Source: a phage | Strand: one strand, 5' to 3' | Sequence record: OZ556245.1 | Length of the DNA: 64,000 nt | Part shown: positions 2,600-47,274 of the stretch, piece after piece | Numbering within the stretch: the stretch's first letter is position 1 | How the letters are laid out: the number at the start of each line of letters is the position of its first letter | Translations under genes and position numbers: made by a program | Notes under the pieces: generated by a model | What the model was told of the DNA's origin: nothing | Databases searched by the model: none | The model's input: the letters and a program-made list of their open reading frames with translations, nothing else

Positions 2600-2807
2600 C
2601 TTTAATACTTATAATTTCAATATCAGCCCAATGACCGTAACTTGGTAAACGGTCTTCAATAGATAATCCGCCATCATATTTAAGCATTTTAATTGTCATA
2701 ATATATGGCTCTAAATGGTCTTCAGTGAGCGGAGAGACATCAGTCACACGATAAGTAACTTCGACCATTTCCGTGCCCAGTAATTTCTTGATTAATTTCT
2801 TAAACAT
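2592..2807 (-). CDS. hypothetical protein
   Basis: 71-aa ORF in co-directional minus-strand array. Confidence 0.45.
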   Translation of the reverse strand: MFKKLIKKLLGTEMVEVTYRVTDVSPLTEDHLEPYIMTIKMLKYDGGLSIEDRLPSYGHWADIEIISIKDV

Positions 2808-2811
2808 TTTA

Positions 2812-3099
2812 TTAGAACCTCATCTGAAAACCGTGCGATTTAACATTACCGCCGCCAATATCAGAAATGTTAATTTCACGCGCAATTGAAGGGTCAATGT
2901 CAATTTCACGATTGAGTTTAGTGATAGCTAAAGTATCGCGGCCATTTACAGTACGGAACTCTAAAGGGCAGACTACATTAACATAGTTTTTAATCGATTC
3001 ACTGGTAAGTTGCAAATGAGCAGGAAGGTCTTTAGGCGCCTTAGAGAAAACCACTTCACAGAAATTTTTGCGGGTGTCAAAATAAGTAGTCATAAACAT
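2812..3099 (-). CDS. hypothetical protein
   Basis: 95-aa ORF in minus-strand array. Confidence 0.5.
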   Translation of the reverse strand: MFMTTYFDTRKNFCEVVFSKAPKDLPAHLQLTSESIKNYVNVVCPLEFRTVNGRDTLAITKLNREIDIDPSIAREINISDIGGGNVKSHGFQMRF

Positions 3100-19439: not shown

Positions 19440-19670
19440 TTATTGTTCAATCAATCCCATGTAAAATTCTGCGTCTTCAGAATCCATGCCGTCACAATAC
19501 TCATTAGCCATAAAGCGGGTGAGGTCTTCAAGAGGACCTTCAATGACAATAGAAAAATTGCAATAATTGGGATCATCGTGAATACTTGTGATACTAAGTT
19601 CAGGATAACGATTACGAATAATTTCTTCAATATATTCAAAATCAACGATGTCAATATCAACTTTAGCCAT
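19440..19670 (-). CDS. small acidic protein (start taken at MAKVDIDIV)
   Basis: ~76 aa; AGAGGAAAG Shine-Dalgarno upstream of the second ATG; early promoter upstream. Confidence 0.5.
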
Positions 19671-35399: not shown

Positions 35400-36035
35400 T
35401 CACAGTTCAGATGCTACGGTGATTACTGCTTCAATGTTTTCTGCCGAGCGTTTAATGTCAAGATACACATTGCCGTTTTTAGCGATTTTACATGACATTC
35501 CGATATCAGTAAATTTCTGAATATGATGTTCCATCATTTTGTATCCAAAAATTCGCATATTTCCATTGTTATTAATTTCAAAATTACGAATTCCGTGAGT
35601 GCGTTTTTCTAAAATAGCAAGATAGTTACTGCGGTAAGTTTCAACCTTTTTAAGAACAAATCCATTTTCATCTAAAAGTTTTAGCATGAGGTCTTTATCT
35701 TCTTCCATATCGGAAGTAATCTCACGAGCTTTACGAGTTGCTCGTTTTTTCAGCAGTTCAGGAGCATTTTCCTGTGCATATAAAGTTGCCGCATTTGAAA
35801 TAATATCCTGAGCTTCACCTGTAATGATCAATCCATCACCAGATTTCTCCACCAGGCCTTTTTTAATCAATACCCCAATATTACTATTAACTACTGCATT
35901 ACCTAAATCTGGATGCACCTCACGAACTTCTGCGGCTGTAATGAAATCTTTCTTAGCAATGGTAATTAAAATCGCAGCAGTTTTTTCATTCAGAACATCG
36001 TTAGAAGCTTTGATGATGTAAGTTACTTTAGACAT
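35400..36035 (-). CDS. motA: MotA middle-transcription activator
   Basis: 211-aa ORF starting MSKVTYIIKASNDVLNEKTAAILITIAKKDFITAAEVREV. Confidence 0.92.
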   Translation of the reverse strand: MSKVTYIIKASNDVLNEKTAAILITIAKKDFITAAEVREVHPDLGNAVVNSNIGVLIKKGLVEKSGDGLIITGEAQDIISNAATLYAQENAPELLKKRATRKAREITSDMEEDKDLMLKLLDENGFVLKKVETYRSNYLAILEKRTHGIRNFEINNNGNMRIFGYKMMEHHIQKFTDIGMSCKIAKNGNVYLDIKRSAENIEAVITVASEL

Positions 36036-36140
36036 TTTAATCTCCGTTTCAGTTCATTTATTTGATAGGTCTATAGTATCATGTTTAAAGCAGAAGTAAA
36101 CACTTTTTTGCACTCTTTTTCAAGAGCTCTAATAAAGTAC

Positions 36141-36368
36141 TTACTTAATGTTCAGATTACGAACTTCGATTTCGTCTTCATGGGCAAAATCAAACTGTTT
36201 GAATTCTGTGTCACCTTTAAATTTAAAAATCATTGTGAAGAAAGTCAGAACACCAGGTTTTTCTTCACGAACTCCACAGATATCATATTCAATACCATCT
36301 ACAACCAGTTTGTTAGCAGTCAGAGCATTTTTAGCTTTAACGATTTCGTTTTCGATTTTAAATTTCAT
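36141..36368 (-). CDS. hypothetical protein
   Basis: 75-aa ORF downstream of an early promoter. Confidence 0.5.
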   Translation of the reverse strand: MKFKIENEIVKAKNALTANKLVVDGIEYDICGVREEKPGVLTFFTMIFKFKGDTEFKQFDFAHEDEIEVRNLNIK

Positions 36369-36416
36369 TTTTTGTATCTCCGGGTTGTTTGTTTCAGTTC
36401 ATTTATTTGATAGTTG

Positions 36417-36447
36417 TATAGTACCATAAAGCTTTATGCTTGTAAAC
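36417..36447 (-). promoter_or_regulatory. early sigma70-type promoter, near-identical copy of the one at 19713-19743
   Basis: Same ~60-bp sequence as 19705-19768. Confidence 0.55.
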
Positions 36448-36471
36448 CGTTTTGTGAAAAAATTTTGAAAT

Positions 36472-36497
36472 AAAAAAGGGAGAGCCTCGGCTCTCCC
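36472..36497 (-). terminator. rho-independent terminator downstream of gene 52 unit
   Basis: GGGAGAGCC...GGCTCTCCC hairpin with minus-strand U-run. Confidence 0.55.
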
Positions 36498-36502
36498 TAA
36501 AA

Positions 36503-36652
36503 TTACTGCATGACTGTGATAACTGTCATGATAACACGTTGAATTCCGAACGCAAGAAGACCTCCTGCTACGGCAGGAACAACACCTAAACCCGCCAGTA
36601 AAATGCCACCAGATACTAATGCAGCGCTTGTAATACCTATGAATGGACTCAT
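36503..36652 (-). CDS. small hydrophobic membrane peptide (49 aa)
   Basis: Hand translation MSPFIGITSAALVSGGILLAGLGVVPAVAGGLLAFGIQRVIMTVITVMQ; ATG overlaps gene 52 stop; terminator downstream. Confidence 0.4.
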   Translation of the reverse strand: MSPFIGITSAALVSGGILLAGLGVVPAVAGGLLAFGIQRVIMTVITVMQ

Positions 36653-37977
36653 TTGATTTCCTCTAAATCTTTGGTGTATTCTGTAACTACATCAGTAGTT
36701 TTCCAATATTCGTTTTCTTCTTTTTTAGCTTTAGCTTCTTCAGCAAGTTTCTTTGCTTCGTCGGAAGTCATATGAAAAATATTCATTCCAACTAGTTTAT
36801 CAACATAAGAAGAATACATATCAATTTTAGAAAGTTCTTCGGTCAGTTCTTTGCGAGTTTTACCTTGTACAACAATTTCACCTGAAATTACTTTCTTAAT
36901 GAAATGTGCCTTGGCAAAGGCTAAACGAAATGCTGATTCAGTTTCTTTGATTTTGTTATCAATTCGTTTTTGGACATAAGTTTTACGAACTTCAACGAAG
37001 TCTTTGATTAAATCAACTACGTTATCGTAAACTTGTAGTTTTCCTTTCTCATTAATAACGGTAATATTCTGGGAACGACGCTCAATCAACCCGAAGTCTT
37101 TCATAATTTTTGCATGGCGTTCTTCTTCGTTATCGCTTAAGGAATATTCTTTACGGAATTTAACTTTGAAGCCAAAACCATGCTCACCGCAAGCATCATC
37201 CCACGTAATGAAACCTTTATCTTCAAGCGGGTCTAAGATTTTACTCACATAAGTTTCACGATCATACTTATACGGAATCTCAGTGATATGCATTTGAGTT
37301 CGCGAAGTAAACTTGTACGTTCCACGAATTTCATATTGACCGTCAATTTCAACGACTTCACCACGAAATTCTGGGAATTCTACCTTAGGTTTAGTTACTT
37401 TCTTTCCTTGAAGAGCTTGCAATACAGCTTTCTTGACAGAAGAAACACTATGAGGAAGAATGTAAGTTGCATAACCAGTTGCAATACCGGAAACACCATT
37501 AAGAAGAACAGTAGGAATAATAGGCAAATAGAAAGCAGGCGGAATGTGTTCTTTATCTTGATGTACCGGAGCATATTCAGTATCTTTATATACGTTATAG
37601 AAATTTTTACTTACACGAGCAAAAATATAACGACTTGCCGCTGCTTTTTGAACGGTACGAGAACCAAAGTTTCCTTGACCATCTAACAGAGGAAAGTTAT
37701 TATTCCAAGTATTAGCCATCAAAGCACCTGCGTCTTGTGCAGAGTTTTCACCATGATGATATCCAAGGTCTGCTACACCACCTGCAATAGAAGCGAGTTT
37801 GTGAAACTTATCTTTATTTCCTCGTGCCAAATCAAGAGCTCGAGCAATAACAAATCGTTGAACTGGCTTAAATCCATCAATCATATTTGGGATAGCACGA
37901 TTTTCAACCGTGTACATAGCATAAGCCAATGCTTCGTTATCAATGATACTTTTTAAATCGCGATTATTCAGTTGCAT
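36649..37977 (-). CDS. 52: gp52 topoisomerase II medium subunit
   Basis: 442-aa ORF, GyrA-like N-terminal region with active-site tyrosine context. Confidence 0.9.
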   Translation of the reverse strand: MQLNNRDLKSIIDNEALAYAMYTVENRAIPNMIDGFKPVQRFVIARALDLARGNKDKFHKLASIAGGVADLGYHHGENSAQDAGALMANTWNNNFPLLDGQGNFGSRTVQKAAASRYIFARVSKNFYNVYKDTEYAPVHQDKEHIPPAFYLPIIPTVLLNGVSGIATGYATYILPHSVSSVKKAVLQALQGKKVTKPKVEFPEFRGEVVEIDGQYEIRGTYKFTSRTQMHITEIPYKYDRETYVSKILDPLEDKGFITWDDACGEHGFGFKVKFRKEYSLSDNEEERHAKIMKDFGLIERRSQNITVINEKGKLQVYDNVVDLIKDFVEVRKTYVQKRIDNKIKETESAFRLAFAKAHFIKKVISGEIVVQGKTRKELTEELSKIDMYSSYVDKLVGMNIFHMTSDEAKKLAEEAKAKKEENEYWKTTDVVTEYTKDLEEIK

Positions 37978-37981
37978 AAAT

Positions 37982-38122
37982 TTACCATACTAGTGAATGT
38001 AGTGCCATAATAACATCAGAAATGAAAAGCACGACTTGAATTAATCCGAACATTACTCCATAATATAGTGCTACCAATAAAGTAGCAAGGGCTAATGAAT
38101 AGCCCAAGATTTTCTTAATCAT
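37982..38122 (-). CDS. small hydrophobic peptide (~46 aa)
   Basis: Hand translation [31 protein letters not shown]...; coordinates approximate. Confidence 0.3.
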   Translation of the reverse strand: MIKKILGYSLALATLLVALYYGVMFGLIQVVLFISDVIMALHSLVW

Positions 38123-38273
38123 TAGTAGATAACAACACAAATGTTAAATATGCACACATACCCTGAGATAAAGCTTGTGAAAACACGCTGTTAGCATCGG
38201 TGCAGATAGTTAAAACACATGCTACTATCCAACAAATCATTGAAATAATTCCAATAATTTTCGTAATATTCAT
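38115..38273 (-). CDS. small hydrophobic membrane peptide (52 aa)
   Basis: Hand translation [52 protein letters not shown]; GAGGAGA Shine-Dalgarno 6 nt upstream. Confidence 0.4.
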
Positions 38274-38370
38274 AATATTCTCCTCGATTGTTTTTAAAAC
38301 CTAAAACACCGAAATTTTTAAGATTGTTACGATAGAACTGCATCACATGTTCGTTATGGAAATTACTCAT
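38191..38370 (-). CDS. stp: Stp-like peptide; N-terminus matches T4 Stp, C-terminus divergent and extended to 59 codons
   Basis: ATG overlapping ndd stop (TAATG); reads [28 protein letters not shown]...; first 18 residues match T4 Stp as recalled. Confidence 0.5.
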
Positions 38371-38822
38371 TAGTATACCTGCAAAACAAATTTAAAGTTA
38401 TCAGCCAACATACGGTTCATTTCTTCAAGTGTTTGATACTCAGAATGATGATTACGAGTAAACGCTAAAGCTAACTGACCTTTTCCAAATCCTGTCGTCA
38501 AAGGTTTCATCTTAGAAGCAGGCAAATAAAATACTGCGTATGGAACATTATTATTTGCAATAGTGCGCGCGAGCTGAGACCGACGTTGACGAATATGACT
38601 TAGAACTGCACTGAATCCTTGTTTAGAACGCTGATTACCTACATAAAATCGTGCAGATACGCATGAACCATATGAACCATCGAATTCGCTTATTAAAAAG
38701 TAAAATCCAGGTTTAGATAAAATATCTTTGTGCGGAGTTCCCAAAAACCATTCACCGCCCTTGATTGTACCAATAACAGTAGCACCTGCATTATTCAGAT
38801 CAGTAACAGTCATGTATTTCAT
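38370..38822 (-). CDS. ndd: Ndd nucleoid disruption protein candidate
   Basis: 150-aa ORF directly upstream of stp; length and synteny. Confidence 0.7.
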
Positions 38823-38881
38823 ATTAATTTCCTCTAATTATTTTCTACTCCAAGGCCGCATGAATACACACGGCCGATAAA

Positions 38882-39097
38882 TTAATCGTCGCAGTCGACG
38901 CTCAATTCCCAGAACTCTTCTACGGTATAAGTTTCAGTATCATTTTCAATACAGAAACGTTCATTACTGTTGTTTGCTAAAGTAGCATTAACTGTCATTT
39001 TCTCGCTAGTGCTCTTAAGAGGTGAAATACGAATTAACTGATCACCACTATCTAAGCAAAAAATTTCGCCAACTTTTACATCTTTAAAAATTTTCAT
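38882..39097 (-). CDS. hypothetical protein
   Basis: 71-aa ORF. Confidence 0.5.
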   Translation of the reverse strand: MKIFKDVKVGEIFCLDSGDQLIRISPLKSTSEKMTVNATLANNSNERFCIENDTETYTVEEFWELSVDCDD

Positions 39098-39212
39098 AAT
39101 TCACCTCAGGGAGTATAAAATCCAAATGCAGTTGTTGACCATCCCATCCAATACGGAAAATTTGCACCGACGTAAAACATGAGAATATAAAACCAACCAC
39201 TCAATAAATTCA

Positions 39213-39431
39213 TCATTTTACACCATTCCAAATTGTTTCAACCACAGATTTTAAGCCATTTTGATGAATGTCCATTCCGACAACTGCCATCAAATAAATT
39301 CCAACTACAACTGAACCTAAGGCAAAAATCAGCATGAAAATGAATAAAGCCGGAAAAATATTATCGAAAAACCATTCAATAAATGTAAAAGCACTGCGTT
39401 TACGCTTCATATTTTCCTCACATAAATCCAA
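39213..39431 (-). CDS. small membrane protein
   Basis: 72-aa ORF with hydrophobic helices. Confidence 0.5.
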   Translation of the reverse strand: MDLCEENMKRKRSAFTFIEWFFDNIFPALFIFMLIFALGSVVVGIYLMAVVGMDIHQNGLKSVVETIWNGVK

Positions 39432-39627
39432 AGTAAGCGTTTAATACATCAATCATTAAAACGATTGGGAATATACTCAAAACTACTAGTATTATAACTA
39501 CATTCCATATAGCTTTAACAATCTTTTTCATTTTCTGTTCCTCCGTAGTTGATAGTTGTATAGTACCACAAAGGAACAGTCTTGTAAACAACTTTTTAAA
39601 AATATTCGTAATAAATGTGAATACCAA
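39418..39627 (-). CDS. small membrane protein
   Basis: 69-aa ORF, hydrophobic (VVIILVVLSIFPIVLMI). Confidence 0.5.
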   Translation of the reverse strand: MVFTFITNIFKKLFTRLFLCGTIQLSTTEEQKMKKIVKAIWNVVIILVVLSIFPIVLMIDVLNAYFGFM

Positions 39628-39805
39628 TCACCACTGCCGAAACTTGTGCAACCCACCATGCACAAGCAATAAGTACAGAATTCAAAATTTTCATAATAAC
39701 CTCATTACAAAAGTAAATGTTAAACAAATTAATGGAATACTAACTAACCAAACAAAACACCACCACAATGAACTCATAGTTCAATCTCAACGATTTTCAT
39801 TTTAC

Positions 39806-40024
39806 TCAATAATCCGCTAAAAGATCGACGATTGTATCACGAAGACATTTATTCGCGATACGTTTAAGAGCAATTTCAGTTTCTGGAGCATTTTGAATAA
39901 TCATTGAATTCAATTCAGCTTCAGCAAACTGAAGTTCTTTAACTAATTCAGCTTTATATTTTCCTTGCCCTTTCTTAGCTTTTGCTCGTTTTAATTCAGC
40001 TGTAGTAAACATTTTATTCTCCAA
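39806..40024 (-). CDS. hypothetical protein
   Basis: 72-aa ORF, Lys/Ala-rich N-terminus. Confidence 0.5.
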   Translation of the reverse strand: MENKMFTTAELKRAKAKKGQGKYKAELVKELQFAEAELNSMIIQNAPETEIALKRIANKCLRDTIVDLLADY

Positions 40025-40093
40025 ATCCGTATCAGTTGATAGTTGTATAATACCACAGTCCTTGTGGTATGTAAACCATTTTGTGAAAATTTT

Positions 40094-40651
40094 TTAAATG
40101 GAAAGATACCATCCGTTGTAGTTGCTTTTTCTTACAACCTTACGAAGGTCTTCTCTATCACCGATGAACTTCGGAGTGTACTGGATGACACCTGGATGAA
40201 TTTCTTTAGTGTTGAATATAATTATACAGTCAGCGACCTGATGATTCAGAATGGGCCCTAGATTTATTCCAGAACCGTATGGATACTCTCCGCTGCATCC
40301 TGTTGTTACAGAAATCCAACGCGAGTCAGTTTGATGTGTCTTAACTTCTACGCGAAGCCCGCAGTATCTTGGATGCGCCAATACATCCCATGCGTATGTA
40401 TACGGGTCATTAACATCCTCTTGGCCTTTGTTAACATACCCGCTTAGCCAATCTGCTACAAAAAACTCTGCGTACACCGCGATACGACATCTTTCAATAA
40501 CTTCTGCTTTATCCTGGTTCGGGTTTTGTTTTAAAGAGTATCTTGCTGTATCAGCAATTTTGACCTTCATTTCACTAGTCAAGTCACTGTTCGATAGGGT
40601 AAATGTCGGAATCTGAAATAGTCTCTGTAAACCCGGATTCGTTTTCTGCAT
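40094..40651 (-). CDS. denB: endonuclease IV
   Basis: 185-aa ORF; length and synteny (upstream of rIIB) as in T4. Confidence 0.8.
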   Translation of the reverse strand: MQKTNPGLQRLFQIPTFTLSNSDLTSEMKVKIADTARYSLKQNPNQDKAEVIERCRIAVYAEFFVADWLSGYVNKGQEDVNDPYTYAWDVLAHPRYCGLRVEVKTHQTDSRWISVTTGCSGEYPYGSGINLGPILNHQVADCIIIFNTKEIHPGVIQYTPKFIGDREDLRKVVRKSNYNGWYLSI

Positions 40652-40913
40652 TTAGACTTTCCTTTTTACCGCTGAGATAAGCGTTATATACTTTAAGAGT
40701 GCCGTAATAAATTCGGTCATTTTCATCTAAAGACTCACGGTCAAGTTCATCGAGTTCCTTTTTATCCATGACTATAACATCATTGCAGTAAAGAAACCCA
40801 AGTTTTTCGTGACCAAACTCAAATTTATTGCAGTACACAATATTAGCGTGATGATTTCCGTGTAGATTAATCTCTTTTATGTCGGAATCACCGATATTCA
40901 TACAATAAATCAT
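40584..40913 (-). CDS. hypothetical protein
   Basis: 109-aa ORF; 3' end overlaps denB start, true start uncertain. Confidence 0.4.
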   Translation of the reverse strand: MIYCMNIGDSDIKEINLHGNHHANIVYCNKFEFGHEKLGFLYCNDVIVMDKKELDELDRESLDENDRIYYGTLKVYNAYLSGKKESLNAENESGFTETISDSDIYPIEQ

Positions 40914-44570: not shown

Positions 44571-46388
44571 CTATTGGCTCATCCATTCTTTACGAAGGTC
44601 AGCATTATCTCCCATGAGCATTTCAAAAAGCTCTTTCCAGTTCTCAGGAAGTTTAACAACATCATATACTGGGTTTTGAATCATCTCACGGTATTCAGAT
44701 TTTTCCAAAGAGCCAAGTCCCTTAATATAACGGATGCTATGTTTAGGTAGAGCATCTTTGGCACTCTCATATTCAGCGACTGTATAAAACCATTCTTGTT
44801 TTTTACCGACCTGAGCGATGATTACAGGAGTTTTGACGAAGCGAATTCTTCCTTGTTCAAACAGTTCTGGCCAATTACTAAAAAATCCGAGCAGAGAAGG
44901 ATAAATGCTTCCTAGACCATCATGGTCGGCATCGGTCATAATTGCAATATTATGATAATTCAAGTTTTCAGCCTTTTCACCAAGAACTAATCCAGTGATT
45001 GCGCAAATATCAAACAGTTCTTTGTTTTTAAGCATATCAGCATATGACATACCCCAGCTGTTAAGAACTTTACCGCGTAATGGATAACCACCATGAAGTT
45101 CTTTATCACGAACATCAATAAGATATCCGATAGCCGAATCACCCTCAGTCAAGAAAAGAGTAGTGTCAGCATCTTTACCACAAAGATTCGCTTTAATATG
45201 TTTATGAACCTTAGCTTTAGAAGCCTTTTTAGCTGCTTTAGTTTCTGCTGCCTTTTCTGCAGCCAATTTACGAGCCAAAGCAGCTTCAATAATTGGCATT
45301 AAAATTGCTTCATTGTTTAAAATAGCGCGTGAAATCTTTTTAGCATCAAGCTGAATATGACTACGAATTTCACCAAATGGAGAAGTCAAACGCTCTTTAG
45401 TTTGAGAATCAAATCGCATGTTTTTCATATCACGAACAAACATGACGATAGTCAAACATTCTTTAACACGTGCTTTAGTTACATCAATTTTGAACTTGCG
45501 TTTGATTTGTGGAATAAGGTCTTCACAAATATCATCCATAACACAGTCAATGTGATGACCACCATTCTTAGTATGAATGTTATTAACGTATGTTAATTGA
45601 CGAAAACCATCCGGTGAACGACCAACCGCAATAGAACAATTTTCTTGTTCTTGAACAATAGCATGCTCATCATATTGGCGTGCGTATTTCTTAAAATTAC
45701 CCTGAACCTTTTTACCATTAAAGGTAAATTGAATATCAGGATAAACTACTGCAAGTGTCTGGAGACGATCTAGTGTAATGTCAAGATAAACTTGAGATAG
45801 CTCATTAGTTTCAAATGACATAAAATCAGGAATGAAAGTAACACGTGTTCCTTTCCATTTTCCAGGAATATCTTCCCATGATTTATTTTCCATGCCATTT
45901 GAACAACGAACTACAATATTATTTTGACCGTCGCCAGTTTCACCGATAAACATCACAGAAAAAATGTTAGTTAAACTAGAACCAACACCGTTCATACCGC
46001 CAGTGACGCGTTCTTTGTCATCACCAAAGTTACCACCTGCTTTTGGAATAGTCCAGGCAGCAACAGGACCAGGAATTTCTTCACCAGTAGGTGTTTTAAC
46101 CATCGCTTGTGGAATACCACGACCGTTATCTTCAACTGTTACTTGATTGTTTTTGATAGTAACATTAATTTTATTCGCGAATTTAAACTTAGTACGAATA
46201 CCTTCATCTACCGAGTTATCGATAATTTCATCAATAAGCTTAACAAGACCAGGTACATACTGAACACTTTCCCATTTACCAAACAGAAAGCGCTCATGCA
46301 TTTCATTAGCGGAAGAGCCAATGTACATGCCGCTACGCTTTTTGATATGTTCAATATCGCTCAGAATTTTAATTTCATTCTTAATCAT
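44571..46388 (-). CDS. 39: topoisomerase II large (ATPase) subunit, single uninterrupted ORF
   Basis: ~605 aa from MIKNEIKILSDIEHIKKRSGMYIGS; GyrB-like ATPase and TOPRIM regions in one frame. Confidence 0.9.
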   Translation of the reverse strand: MIKNEIKILSDIEHIKKRSGMYIGSSANEMHERFLFGKWESVQYVPGLVKLIDEIIDNSVDEGIRTKFKFANKINVTIKNNQVTVEDNGRGIPQAMVKTPTGEEIPGPVAAWTIPKAGGNFGDDKERVTGGMNGVGSSLTNIFSVMFIGETGDGQNNIVVRCSNGMENKSWEDIPGKWKGTRVTFIPDFMSFETNELSQVYLDITLDRLQTLAVVYPDIQFTFNGKKVQGNFKKYARQYDEHAIVQEQENCSIAVGRSPDGFRQLTYVNNIHTKNGGHHIDCVMDDICEDLIPQIKRKFKIDVTKARVKECLTIVMFVRDMKNMRFDSQTKERLTSPFGEIRSHIQLDAKKISRAILNNEAILMPIIEAALARKLAAEKAAETKAAKKASKAKVHKHIKANLCGKDADTTLFLTEGDSAIGYLIDVRDKELHGGYPLRGKVLNSWGMSYADMLKNKELFDICAITGLVLGEKAENLNYHNIAIMTDADHDGLGSIYPSLLGFFSNWPELFEQGRIRFVKTPVIIAQVGKKQEWFYTVAEYESAKDALPKHSIRYIKGLGSLEKSEYREMIQNPVYDVVKLPENWKELFEMLMGDNADLRKEWMSQ

Positions 46389-46457
46389 CACTTATCCTCG
46401 TTTGGTTTCGGGAATATTATACTCCGGTAATCATAAAGCTAAAGGCCCGAAGGCCTT

Positions 46458-46727
46458 TTATTTAAAACGGATAGTCGAATCCTTGAAGAATAGACCAGAA
46501 CACACGGTTCCTTCTACTTTCTGCCCAGTAGGTCCAATAGCACGAAATCCAGTATGTTGAAAATCATTTTCAGAGCAACCGAACCAGTTGTATCCAGTGA
46601 TTTCAATATTAGTAAAACCACTTGAAGACAAAACTTTGGTTGCATTATCAGCATCAGTACATCCTGCTAAAGACACTGCTAATACTAATGCTGCGATAGA
46701 ACGATTAATATATTTCATAGTTTTCAC
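46458..46727 (-). CDS. small lipoprotein
   Basis: 89-aa ORF with signal peptide and lipobox (LAGCT). Confidence 0.5.
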   Translation of the reverse strand: MKTMKYINRSIAALVLAVSLAGCTDADNATKVLSSSGFTNIEITGYNWFGCSENDFQHTGFRAIGPTGQKVEGTVCSGLFFKDSTIRFK

Positions 46728-47101: not shown

Positions 47102-47130
47102 CCTTTAAGTAAGTCGTAAAAACCACCATT

Positions 47131-47274
47131 CACATGCTTAGGAGCAGAAGGCCGACGAGTAGACAGACGATGACATTTAGGGCAAACATCATTTTCTCGT
47201 TCAGAAATCTTTTTAATTTTTTCATATTCATGCCCACAATCTTCGGATTGGCATTTATAATCATACATTGGCAT
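47131..47274 (-). CDS. small membrane protein (~47 aa)
   Basis: Hand translation MPMYDYKCQSEDCGHEYEKLKRFLNEKMMFALNVIVCLLVGLLLLSM; coordinates approximate. Confidence 0.3.

Follow-up and report, generated by a model that had tools for sequence, protein, structure and literature searches.

We analysed a 64,000-nucleotide stretch of phage record OZ556245.1 (the window), focusing on the region between gene 52 and denB. The phage is T4-like (Tequatrovirus, 99% identity to LF73P3), and the region matches hundreds of Tequatrovirus genomes at 95–99% identity. In T4, the interval from rIIB/denB to gene 52 is called the D region and is a known cluster of predicted membrane proteins. An initial annotation, made from the sequence alone, had reported tiny hydrophobic ORFs here, and all of them are present on the minus strand. 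Each corresponds to one T4 reference gene: motA.1, 52.1, ac, ndd.2, ndd.2a/ndd.3, ndd.4, ndd.5, and ndd.6. The gene order is identical, gene for gene, to that in the T4 annotation NC_000866 (T4p263–T4p275), strand, lengths, coupling, and PHROG/Pfam families are likewise shared, and all eight peptides are 80–98% identical to T4. All ORFs lie on the minus (early) strand, as does every feature given coordinates below, and they are tiled without gaps, with Shine-Dalgarno sites or ATGA-type overlaps. Two strings are chained by Shine-Dalgarno sites and overlapping stop and start codons: orf68-ndd.6-ndd.5 and ndd.4-ndd.2a/3-ndd.2-ndd.1-ndd-stp-ac-52.1-52-motA.1. The best 19-residue hydropathy window scores 2.2–3.1 in seven of the eight ORFs, which thus carry a segment of transmembrane grade, and 1.16 in the aromatic-rich, moderately hydrophobic ndd.2.

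In the direction of transcription, the first ORF is orf68 (39806-40012), a soluble 68-aa ORF that is not in T4 and is 99% identical to RB32ORF266c in SsoM113. An early-promoter-like sequence lies upstream of it (40047-40075). It is one of two soluble cassettes found here beyond the T4 set, the other being orf75, and it resembles a PeSL cassette insertion (cf. PMC4122927). The short frames of ~30–40 codons that the initial annotation had sketched correspond to ndd.6 (28 aa), ndd.5 (32 aa), and ndd.2 (36 aa). The hydrophobic, cysteine-containing Ndd.6 (39691-39777; PHROG 8851, E=5.6e-17) is followed by the hydrophobic Ndd.5 (39596-39694; PHROG 5011, E=4e-26), which is 97% identical to T4 and whose start forms an ATGA overlap with the ndd.6 stop. 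A T4-type early promoter for ndd.4 and the genes downstream lies at 39560-39588 (TTTACA-17-TACTAT, with an upstream TG) and fits the PST/T4 early-promoter consensus TTTACW-N17-TAYWAT (PMC4122927). Both promoter sequences are of the sigma-70 type.

The 72- and 69-aa ORFs previously described between ndd and denB do exist, but their lengths were over-extended, and the conserved starts give 65 and 37 aa. The shorter product, the single-pass Ndd.4 (39418-39531; PHROG 3098, E=3e-21), starts at the ATG at 39531 behind a GGAGGA Shine-Dalgarno site at 39539-39544. In the longer version from a TTG at 39627, the added N-terminal stretch would cross the early promoter, and in T4 it is not in frame. The ndd.4 start here is the MKK ATG, whereas the upstream ATG annotated in T4 reads ACG in this phage. 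The 65-aa product is ndd.2a/ndd.3 (39213-39410; PHROG 2401), present as one intact gene that starts at the ATG at 39410 with a GAGGAAAAT Shine-Dalgarno site; the 72-aa version began at a TTG at 39431. In T4, a 1-nt deletion in codon 3 splits this gene into ndd.2a and ndd.3. It matches Pfam DUF7248 (PF23906) over residues 6–63 with 71.9 bits (cut-off 27), and has a basic N-terminus, one transmembrane helix, and a conserved C-terminal GLKSVVE.IWNG tail. The aromatic-rich ndd.2 (39106-39216; PHROG 4135, E=5e-24) follows through an ATGA overlap with the preceding ORF. The next gene, ndd.1 (38882-39097; PHROG 2183), is included for context and encodes a 71-aa acidic soluble protein (GRAVY -0.38, net charge -8). 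Between ndd.1 and ndd lies a GC-rich RNA hairpin (38854-38876; -16 kcal/mol, z=-2.0), the stem of which is retained in one related locus (L005) despite sequence changes, while two others (L007 and L009) have an early promoter in its place.

The stp gene (38191-38370), whose product is not hydrophobic, matches Pfam PF08133 over residues 1–24 (51.3 bits, cut-off 25), and residues 1–18 are identical to T4 Stp. Stp usually has ~26–28 residues and ends ahead of ac; here it reads through 59 aa and overlaps ac because codon 29 is CGA rather than TGA (38284-38286). Judging by T4, T6, and T2 alignments, the stp allele of this phage is of the T6 type and has lost its stop through a TGA-to-CGA change. 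This is simpler than a deletion fusion to a lost Ac paralogue, a reading abandoned once T6 and T2 had been aligned. The stp/ac junction is 100% identical in six phage records. Stp is known as an inhibitor of type Ic restriction and a trigger of PrrC, with an important N-terminus (PMC3014915).

The two ORFs of ~46 and 52 aa noted between gene 52 and stp were correctly recognised and are 52.1 and ac. The 52-aa membrane peptide Ac (38115-38273; PHROG 2501, E=1.7e-22) is preceded by the GAGGAGA Shine-Dalgarno site that had been pointed out for it, at 38279-38285, 5 nt ahead of the ATG. It is 80–85% identical to T4-clade Ac and sits between stp and 52.1 as in T4. The 46-aa hydrophobic peptide 52.1 (37982-38122) starts at an ATG that overlaps the stop of the preceding ORF. 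It matches Pfam DUF7396 (PF24129) over residues 1–46 of 46 with 81.9 bits (cut-off 27) and PHROG 3595 with E=1.2e-25. A 52-aa version from a TTG at 38140 was rejected, as it begins within ac at a position that is not a conserved start. Both ORFs had been described as single-helix peptides. For 52.1, AF2 predicts a single helix over residues 2–45 (pLDDT 96). For Ac, the description is uncertain, as two short helices are predicted (bioRxiv 10.1101/2025.06.30.662393).

Downstream of 52.1 lie gene 52, which encodes a topoisomerase subunit (36649-37977), and the 49-aa glycine-rich hydrophobic peptide MotA.1 (36503-36652; PHROG 3487, E=7e-31). The hydrophobic peptide placed directly downstream of gene 52 by the initial annotation is this one: its ATG and the stop of gene 52 share an ATGA, it has a GAGGAA Shine-Dalgarno site, and it is 98–100% identical to T4-clade MotA.1. 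An intrinsic terminator at 36477-36498 (9-bp stem with 6 GC pairs, then TTTTTATTTC) closes the ndd-stp-ac-52.1-52-motA.1 transcription unit. An Rfam search of both strands of 35900-40800 returned only a sub-threshold CrcZ match, on this terminator, and therefore no known RNA element accounts for the region.

Coding evidence and conservation

Hydrophobicity alone is no evidence for a gene here, because 34 of the 53 hydrophobic ATG-ORFs of 28–80 aa in the 64-kb window sit within longer genes. We therefore give the comparative data for the set. Pooled over the mini-ORFs, variable sites at codon positions 1, 2, and 3 number 25/10/62 (p=7e-10), and pN/pS within the close clade is 0.05–0.27. The individual values, with variable sites per codon position where given, are 0.05 for motA.1 (1/0/8), 0.08 for ndd.2a/3 (3/3/18), 0.09 for ndd.5 (2/0/7), 0.10 for ndd.2 (2/1/10), 0.17 for ndd.6, and 0.22 for ac, while 52.1, ndd.4, and ndd.6 have too few close-clade variable sites for codon periodicity to be read individually. 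In comparisons with distant loci, pN stays far under pS, to a degree similar to that in Ndd, DenB, and MotA; for ndd.4, pN is 0.24–0.27 and pS 0.69–0.84.

A dedicated PHROG family exists for every one of the eight peptides, and for two there is also a Pfam family (DUF7396 and DUF7248). For Ndd.2, Ndd.4, Ndd.5, Ndd.6, and MotA.1, the PHROG profile match is full-length and is accompanied by T4 synteny. T4-like phages that infect Klebsiella or Enterobacter carry five of these families as well, and motifs are shared by loci including the phages Marfa (Klebsiella) and CIP9 (Enterobacter). The Ndd.2 motif G.N.PYW.G is kept in a Klebsiella-phage locus (L016) and an Enterobacter-phage locus (L024), homologues of MotA.1 with 38–45% identity occur in Enterobacter-phage-type loci (L024–L037), and homologues of Ndd.6 with the motif WC.IW..IP.IC.CF are found in several sub-groups. 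Among the loci compared, ndd.5 is restricted to the Tequatrovirus clade. With tblastn, ndd.4 (motif MKK.LKAIWN...FP.V.MID) was matched in 27 of 38 related loci and 52.1 in 31 of 38; a family ORF was called in 32 of 38 for ndd.4, and a complete one was present in 32 of 38 for 52.1.

The 52.1 family is 44–46 aa long with the invariant motifs YYG and VLFISD. A description of 52.1 as exceptionally conserved is true only in comparison with two E. coli phage groups; relative to more distant loci, its divergence is like that of Ndd. Against those two groups, its pS is 0.36–0.42, compared with 0.68–0.77 for gene 52, which suggests either recent exchange or constraint at the nucleotide level. A wide search of 1.84 billion proteins with 52.1 returned only nine clusters at 50% identity, none with an identified bacterial origin.

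Expression evidence from T4 was also considered. In T4, the D region is transcribed early (PMC9697503 Table S2), and proteomics of T4 places Ndd.1 among the early proteins (PMC9697503). No hydrophobic peptide of the set was detected in the time-resolved T4 proteome (Class_P = NA; PMC9697503), and we found no T4 Ribo-seq in the literature; the claim of translation thus rests on comparative evidence. The reading that these ORFs arise by chance in an AT-rich genome, where T-rich codons yield hydrophobic residues without any genes, could draw on the high background of small hydrophobic ORFs and on this proteomic silence, but it is hardly credible and effectively refuted by conservation, given eight ORFs that tile one strand gap-free with Shine-Dalgarno or coupled starts, variation biased to the third position with pN far below pS, motifs conserved across phage genera, and a dedicated HMM family for each. 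By these comparative measures, the mini-ORFs are protein-coding genes under purifying selection.

Very probably, then, the hydrophobic mini-ORFs are orthologues of the T4 D-region genes and genuine genes for small membrane-type proteins, which agrees with their initial description as small membrane-type ORFs of a T-even early region. The same description had taken a lack of both translation signal and conservation as grounds for discarding them; Shine-Dalgarno sites or coupled starts are present, as is conservation. Its statement that all fall below annotation thresholds does not hold, as every one is annotated in NC_000866 and in many relatives. As a discovery there is nothing new in them, and the finding is ordinary because these are long-annotated T4 genes.

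Phenotypes linked to the D region

Although T4 can do without the D region in the laboratory, several of the families encoded there are kept in T4-like phages from several host genera. The region has been tied to acridine sensitivity and to stimulation of host phosphatidylglycerol synthesis. The deletion saDelta9, which removes 52.1 through denB, is viable and abolishes the phospholipid synthesis stimulated by T4 (PMC6071114). When knocked down by CRISPRi-ART, motA.1, 52.1, ac, and ndd.2–ndd.6 were all scored 'Not Fit' and gene 52 'Fit' (PMC11879866); silencing the small genes thus carried no laboratory fitness cost. Neither the CRISPRi-ART study nor the HIDEN-SEQ study mentions the hydrophobic D-region genes in its main text.

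Expression of Ac in E. coli leads to acriflavine sensitivity, and T4 without ac is resistant (bioRxiv 10.1101/2025.06.30.662393; PMC13250531). The suggestion of acriflavine-resistance-type peptides in this region was therefore right in that one of them is ac, and inverted in its sense, as the wild-type product gives sensitivity and the deletion resistance. The substitution G38R in Ac also gives resistance, and the preprint highlights a D26-A27 hinge and G38 in T4 Ac (bioRxiv 10.1101/2025.06.30.662393). The Ac of this phage keeps D26-A27 and G38 and differs from T4 Ac by eight conservative substitutions and an extra Thr found in some relatives. Judged by sequence and position, it is an orthologue of the acriflavine-sensitising T4 Ac, for which alone the phenotype is established. 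[quoted passage not shown] The acridine reports conflict: D-region (sa) deletions are described as sensitive (PMC6071114), while a deletion of ac only is resistant (bioRxiv 10.1101/2025.06.30.662393). The reference sequences of T2 and T6 carry a naturally disrupted ac, so at least ac is easily lost.

Possible roles of the mini-proteins

The best reading of the set is one of early, dispensable, inner-membrane mini-proteins, with the mechanism inferred. T4 and PHROG labels call Ndd.5, Ndd.6, and Ndd.2 'outer membrane protein' and MotA.1 'periplasmic'; in PHROG, seven peptides are labelled as of unknown function, and Ndd.2a/3, Ndd.5, and Ndd.6 only as periplasmic or outer membrane protein. Export-type motifs are weak (L-I-A-C at residues 8–11 of Ndd.5, A-V-A|G in MotA.1), and peptides of 28–36 aa appear too small for barrels, with a hydropathy that fits inner-membrane helices. 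The AF2 models of 52.1 and Ndd.2a/3 (helices 5–17 and 19–64, pLDDT 80) are all-helical, although such models do not separate one long helix from a hairpin.

Under the proposed joint mechanism, each peptide would enter the host inner membrane minutes after infection, where it would bind and modulate a larger host membrane complex, as AcrZ does in E. coli. AcrZ is a 49-aa small inner-membrane protein that binds AcrB, and is similar to these peptides in size and hydrophobic helical build. Ac would be the paradigm through its proposed block of AcrAB-TolC, and the stimulation of phosphatidylglycerol synthesis that depends on the D region may be due to one or more of the ndd.x peptides. The likeness to AcrZ-type regulators in mode of action is presumed by analogy. 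AcrZ modulates, whereas the proposed effect of Ac is inhibitory, and a phmmer search with Ac against all PDB chains returned nothing at E<=1, AcrZ included, as did profile or phmmer searches of PDB chains with 52.1, Ndd.2a/3, and Ndd.4. We hold early modulation of the host envelope machinery tentatively, at a little below an even chance.

A role in defence or counter-defence, either in superinfection exclusion or as inhibitors of membrane-bound abortive-infection effectors, is unlikely. Imm and Sp of T4 are likewise early, small, membrane-located, dispensable proteins, and act in superinfection exclusion; their genes lie in other parts of the T4 genome (sp at 19.7 kb). The mini-proteins have host-conflict neighbours (stp, denB, ndd, and rIIB), the ndd-to-52 slot is hypervariable among phage groups, where Ac and three other families (F4, F5, and F20) swap in a pattern typical of arms-race loci, and PeSL-mediated cassette exchange is documented at ndd.4/.5 (PMC4122927). 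A superinfection role had also been raised by the initial annotation and found no backing from homology: no peptide is related to Imm or Sp in PHROG or Pfam, or to any defence-annotated PHROG. No such phenotype has been reported, and the conservation of 52.1 and ndd.4 exceeds what fast arms-race genes would show.

The size of the peptides (28–65 aa) and their one or two transmembrane helices resemble those of Hok, TisB, and Ldr, small toxins of comparable build, which brings up host-lethal, type I toxin- or holin-like peptides that would depolarise or permeabilise the inner membrane in early shut-off. T4 requires an energised membrane throughout the latent period, which argues against this. 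Many cloned immediate-early small genes of T4 are host-lethal according to the Kutter review, and cells expressing Ac gain 3 logs in acriflavine sensitivity and become sensitive to ampicillin as well (bioRxiv 10.1101/2025.06.30.662393), which general leakiness could explain too. In the same preprint, however, Ac-expressing hosts gave normal phage titres without dye, and therefore Ac is not grossly lethal. No homology to toxin or holin families was found in PHROG, Pfam, or NCBIfam; the sole NCBIfam match was a meaningless sub-threshold bacteriocin hit for Ac, with no family for the mini-proteins. We consider lethal membrane damage quite unlikely.

Stop and start codons overlap or nearly abut throughout the string, and gene 52 has no obvious Shine-Dalgarno site in the window (TGGTAAATTTATG). 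Its ATG lies 4 nt from the 52.1 stop here, and 1–11 nt in 33 of the 33 loci examined. Besides its role as a peptide, 52.1 would thus be a translationally coupled upstream cistron of gene 52. The same arrangement would suit an array of translated spacers only, along which ribosomes are passed by termination-reinitiation, tuning Ndd and gp52, with the peptide sequence irrelevant. This is very improbable, as amino-acid motifs persist in spite of diverging synonymous sites (YYG and VLFISD in 52.1, FP.V.MID in ndd.4, GLKSVVE.IWNG in ndd.2a/3), and the single missense change G38R alters the phenotype of Ac. The score of 52.1 as 'Not Fit' though gene 52 is 'Fit' argues against a strict dependence of gp52 on 52.1 translation.

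Returning to the modulation of host membrane complexes, the comparison across loci allows a wider proposal, which is speculative and, taken as a whole, doubtful. In it, ndd-to-52 may be a hypervariable cassette array whose mini-proteins, unrelated to each other and built of one or two helices, would each be tuned to disable one inner-membrane machine of the host, with Ac and the AcrAB-TolC pump as the first example. The near-universal 52.1, last in the array, could serve to anchor the acridine-targeted T4 topoisomerase at the membrane or to regulate it there. A second acridine-related determinant would be present in the cluster if the D-region and ac-only deletion reports both hold. The phosphatidylglycerol-stimulating factor would lie among ndd.2 to ndd.6. 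An origin of the families by tandem duplication was rejected, as an all-versus-all hhalign comparison of 13 family alignments reached a best probability of 19% and thus detected no paralogy.

The comparative map allows clean constructs, with corrected starts and the intact 65-aa ndd.2a/3, and adds the coupling between 52.1 and gene 52, seen throughout the loci examined, and the interchangeable ndd-to-52 families. Of the latter, F4, F5, and F20 lie outside the window, in T4-like phages infecting Klebsiella, Enterobacter, and Erwinia, and have no detectable homology to Ac, 52.1, or one another. An Erwinia locus (L038) is without a recognisable 52.1; in nearly all of these loci 52.1 comes last, and stop and start codons overlap as they do here. 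The three families occupy the same ndd-to-52 slot with 43–72 aa and a two-helix hairpin pattern, and would be the counterparts of the array in these phages.

Gene content of the D region

By megablast, 36000-40800 matched 930 phage records. Of these, 452 span 80% or more of the query, and Tequatrovirus LF73P3 (99.0%) is the top match. The genes of interest all lie on the minus strand, in the order motA, orf75, motA.1, 52, 52.1, ac, stp, ndd, ndd.1, ndd.2, ndd.2a/3, ndd.4, ndd.5, ndd.6, orf68, denB. Except for orf75 and orf68, the annotations of the T4 reference (NC_000866) and of Shigella phage SsoM113 show the same order, and the finding therefore corresponds to the classical T4 'D region'. 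The initial annotation had suggested that tiny hydrophobic peptides here could include acriflavine-resistance-type or host-membrane modulators. This was roughly right in kind, but their implied unannotated status was wrong: the set consists of known genes. A separate PHROG family exists for each peptide, and Pfam lists 52.1 as DUF7396 and ndd.2a/3 as DUF7248.

Every ORF it listed exists in the window. The two between gene 52 and stp (38191-38370, a 59-aa ORF) are 52.1 (37982-38122, 46 aa) and ac (38115-38273, 52 aa), the latter with the reported GAGGAGA Shine-Dalgarno at 38279-38285, while motA.1 (36503-36652) accounts for the 49-aa ORF downstream of gene 52. The loosely translated 30-40-codon frames correspond to ndd.2, ndd.6 and ndd.5 (39596-39694), which encodes a hydrophobic peptide. 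Two membrane ORFs given as 72 and 69 aa had been over-extended because the first TTG was taken mechanically as the start. The conserved ATG at 39410, preceded by GAGGAAAAT, yields 65 aa for ndd.2a/3 (39213-39410), and that at 39531, with GGAGGA ahead of it, yields 37 aa for ndd.4. In the 69-aa frame, the 32 additional codons run across an early-promoter-like site (39560-39588) and differ in frame from ndd.4 in T4. The upstream ATG annotated for ndd.4 in T4 is ACG in the window, which supports the MKK start common to all homologues.

Conservation of the small genes

In a genome this rich in AT, hydrophobicity is weak evidence of coding: of 53 hydrophobic ATG-ORFs of 28-80 aa in the window, 34 are nested in longer genes. 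Further small hydrophobic ORFs outside larger ORFs occur elsewhere, at 19451-19576 (-), 47130-47264 (-) and 46321-46560 (+).

Comparison between phages carries more weight. The set comprised T4, SsoM113, and 36 viral-contig loci surrounding Ndd homologues. In the close Tequatrovirus clade, pN/pS was 0.05 for motA.1, 0.08 for ndd.2a/3, 0.09 for ndd.5, 0.10 for ndd.2, 0.17 for ndd.6, 0.22 for ac, and 0.27 for 52.1. Pooled variable sites in this clade were distributed 25/10/62 over codon positions 1/2/3 (binomial p=7e-10), and the bias was significant singly for motA.1, ac, ndd.2, ndd.2a/3, and ndd.5. Close-clade variation in 52.1, ndd.4, and ndd.6 is too low for it to show singly; against distant homologues, their pN was far below pS (e.g., 0.24 vs 0.70 for ndd.4), at levels comparable to Ndd, DenB, and MotA. 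Alignments revealed the motifs YYG and VLFISD in 52.1, MKK.LKAIWN...FP.V.MID in ndd.4, GLKSVVE.IWNG in ndd.2a/3, and G.N.PYW.G in ndd.2. The conservation analysis proposed as a check in the initial annotation thus found the frames conserved across T4-like loci by pN/pS, codon positions, and motifs. Chance ORFs were rejected as an explanation: the eight ORFs (motA.1, 52.1, ac, ndd.2, ndd.2a/3, ndd.4, ndd.5, and ndd.6) are conserved, early-transcribed small genes under purifying selection. Hydropathy is consistent with transmembrane helices for seven of the eight peptides, each having a hydrophobic helix of transmembrane grade; aromatic-rich ndd.2 is only moderately hydrophobic.

Recognisable 52.1 and ndd.4 are present in the divergent loci of Klebsiella phage Marfa (L016) and Enterobacter phage CIP9 (L024); in that of Erwinia phage Cronus (L038), a divergent ndd.4-family ORF was the only one of the two found. 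In all loci including the ndd-to-gene 52 interval, two to five ORFs of 43-72 aa lie there in tandem, and the last before gene 52 is 52.1 in nearly all. The other families in this slot are Ac-like, F4 (C-terminal ERL..CGV.K, beginning at the ndd stop, where T4 has stp), F5 (with a GxWxPS turn), and F20, which have a common architecture and no detectable mutual homology. The 52.1 family itself is very small: a search of 1.84 billion proteins yielded 9 clusters at 50% identity.

Expression and possible roles

Promoter-like sites that match the published T4/PST early consensus TTTACW-N17-TAYWAT (PMC4122927) were identified upstream of orf68 (40047-40075), ndd.4, and orf75 (36418-36446), and a strong terminator follows motA.1 (36477-36498). 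Between ndd.1 and ndd lies a GC-rich hairpin (38854-38876, minus strand; no T-run, -16 kcal/mol, z=-2.0) that could serve to stabilise or process mRNA. Its stem is retained in one related locus (L005) despite changed sequence, and two others (L007 and L009) have an early promoter at this spot. In T4, all these peptides have transcripts assigned to the early class; at the protein level, Ndd and Ndd.1 were detected and the hydrophobic peptides were not (PMC9697503 Table S2). CRISPRi-ART knock-down was scored 'Not Fit' for motA.1, 52.1, ac, stp, ndd, ndd.2-ndd.6, and denB, and 'Fit' for gene 52 (PMC11879866). The saDelta9 deletion, from 52.1 through denB, produces phage at half the wild-type rate and abolishes T4 stimulation of phospholipid synthesis (PMC6071114).

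We consider it possible, if somewhat doubtful, that a general mechanism of inner-membrane insertion and binding of larger host complexes applies. The peptides would insert soon after infection and then bind host membrane complexes, much as AcrZ and other E. coli small proteins do. AF2 predicts nothing but helices: one in 52.1 (residues 2-45, pLDDT 96) and two in Ndd.2a/3 (5-17 and 19-64, pLDDT 80). These models leave the topology unsettled; by the positive-inside rule, the N-termini of ndd.4 (MKK..K) and ndd.2a/3 (MKRKR) suggest an N-in orientation. Propagated 'outer membrane' and 'periplasmic' labels on 28-49 aa peptides look unsupported, and may stem from a lipobox-like L-I-A-C at residues 8-11 of Ndd.5 and an A-V-A|G motif in MotA.1. 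Toxins that damage the membrane, or factors for defence or counter-defence, would be possible but less likely alternatives.

The only concrete proposal for the insertion-and-binding mechanism concerns Ac and an efflux pump. A 2025 preprint reports that T4 without ac is acriflavine-resistant, that the Ac substitution G38R confers resistance, and that Ac expression sensitises E. coli, and proposes that Ac blocks AcrAB-TolC (bioRxiv 10.1101/2025.06.30.662393), an assumption repeated in a 2026 PNAS paper (PMC13250531). D-region deletions, however, have been described as acridine-sensitive (PMC6071114), in conflict with the resistance of the ac-only deletion; if both hold, the cluster contains a second acridine-related determinant. 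The classical laboratory phages T2 and T6 carry naturally damaged ac. In the T2 reference (L040, LC348380, 503-660), a TAA interrupts the frame at codon 18 and the annotation lists a 13-aa remnant, and in T6 (L039, MH550421, 503-652) an extra G shifts the frame and alters the C-terminus. SsoM113 has a second, divergent 51-aa Ac paralogue (MKFVHGITFFCWFF..., about 2780-3030 of locus L001, minus strand) between stp and ac, missing from the window and from T4.

Shine-Dalgarno sequences precede ac, ndd.2a/3, ndd.4, ndd.5, and motA.1, while mini-ORFs without one have starts that overlap the stop ahead of them (ATGA or ATGATTAA). In all but one of 33 loci, the 52.1 ATG and the preceding mini-ORF overlap. 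Gene 52 in the window has no evident Shine-Dalgarno (TGGTAAATTTATG; junction 37978-37985), and its ATG lies 1-11 nt past the 52.1 stop in 33/33 loci having both genes, a constancy that suggests translational coupling to 52.1. That the mini-ORFs are mere coupling spacers is nonetheless unlikely, as both the conserved motifs and the Ac missense phenotype count against it.

Rearranged and exchanged mini-genes

Both the window and most relatives have an intact 65-aa ndd.2a/3, unlike T4 (L002 4933-5129), where a 1-nt deletion in codon 3 splits it into ndd.3 and ndd.2a. In viral contig L003, a frameshift or stop loss lets the ndd.6 frame continue for 83 aa through the ndd.5 region, and ndd.5 is gone as a separate gene. 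In a Shigella phage Sf25 protein (P0021), the Ndd.4 N-terminus is joined in frame to the Ndd.2a C-terminus, a natural fusion that appears to have arisen by a deletion joining two adjacent mini-genes. Exchange of the ndd.4/.5 cassette between T4 and phage PST by promoter/stem-loop (PeSL) recombination has been described (PMC4122927). The small, soluble orf75 (36141-36368, minus strand, 75 aa) and orf68 (39806-40012, minus strand, 68 aa), each with its own T4-type early promoter, are missing from T4 and found in some relatives, as expected for such cassette exchange.

Stp has two C-terminal alleles, T4 type and T6/T2 type. The window carries the latter with its stop changed from TGA to CGA at codon 29 (38284-38286), so that the peptide, otherwise 26-28 aa, reaches 59 aa and overlaps ac in another frame. 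Six GenBank phages (ZCEC15, PBM-1, UGKSEcP1, UGKSEcP2, LF73P3, and EPIMAM01) have this junction with 100% identity. Stp activity resides in the first 18 residues and the C-terminus tolerates change (PMC3014915); residues 1-18 are intact and identical to T4 in the window, and the extended Stp is therefore probably still active.
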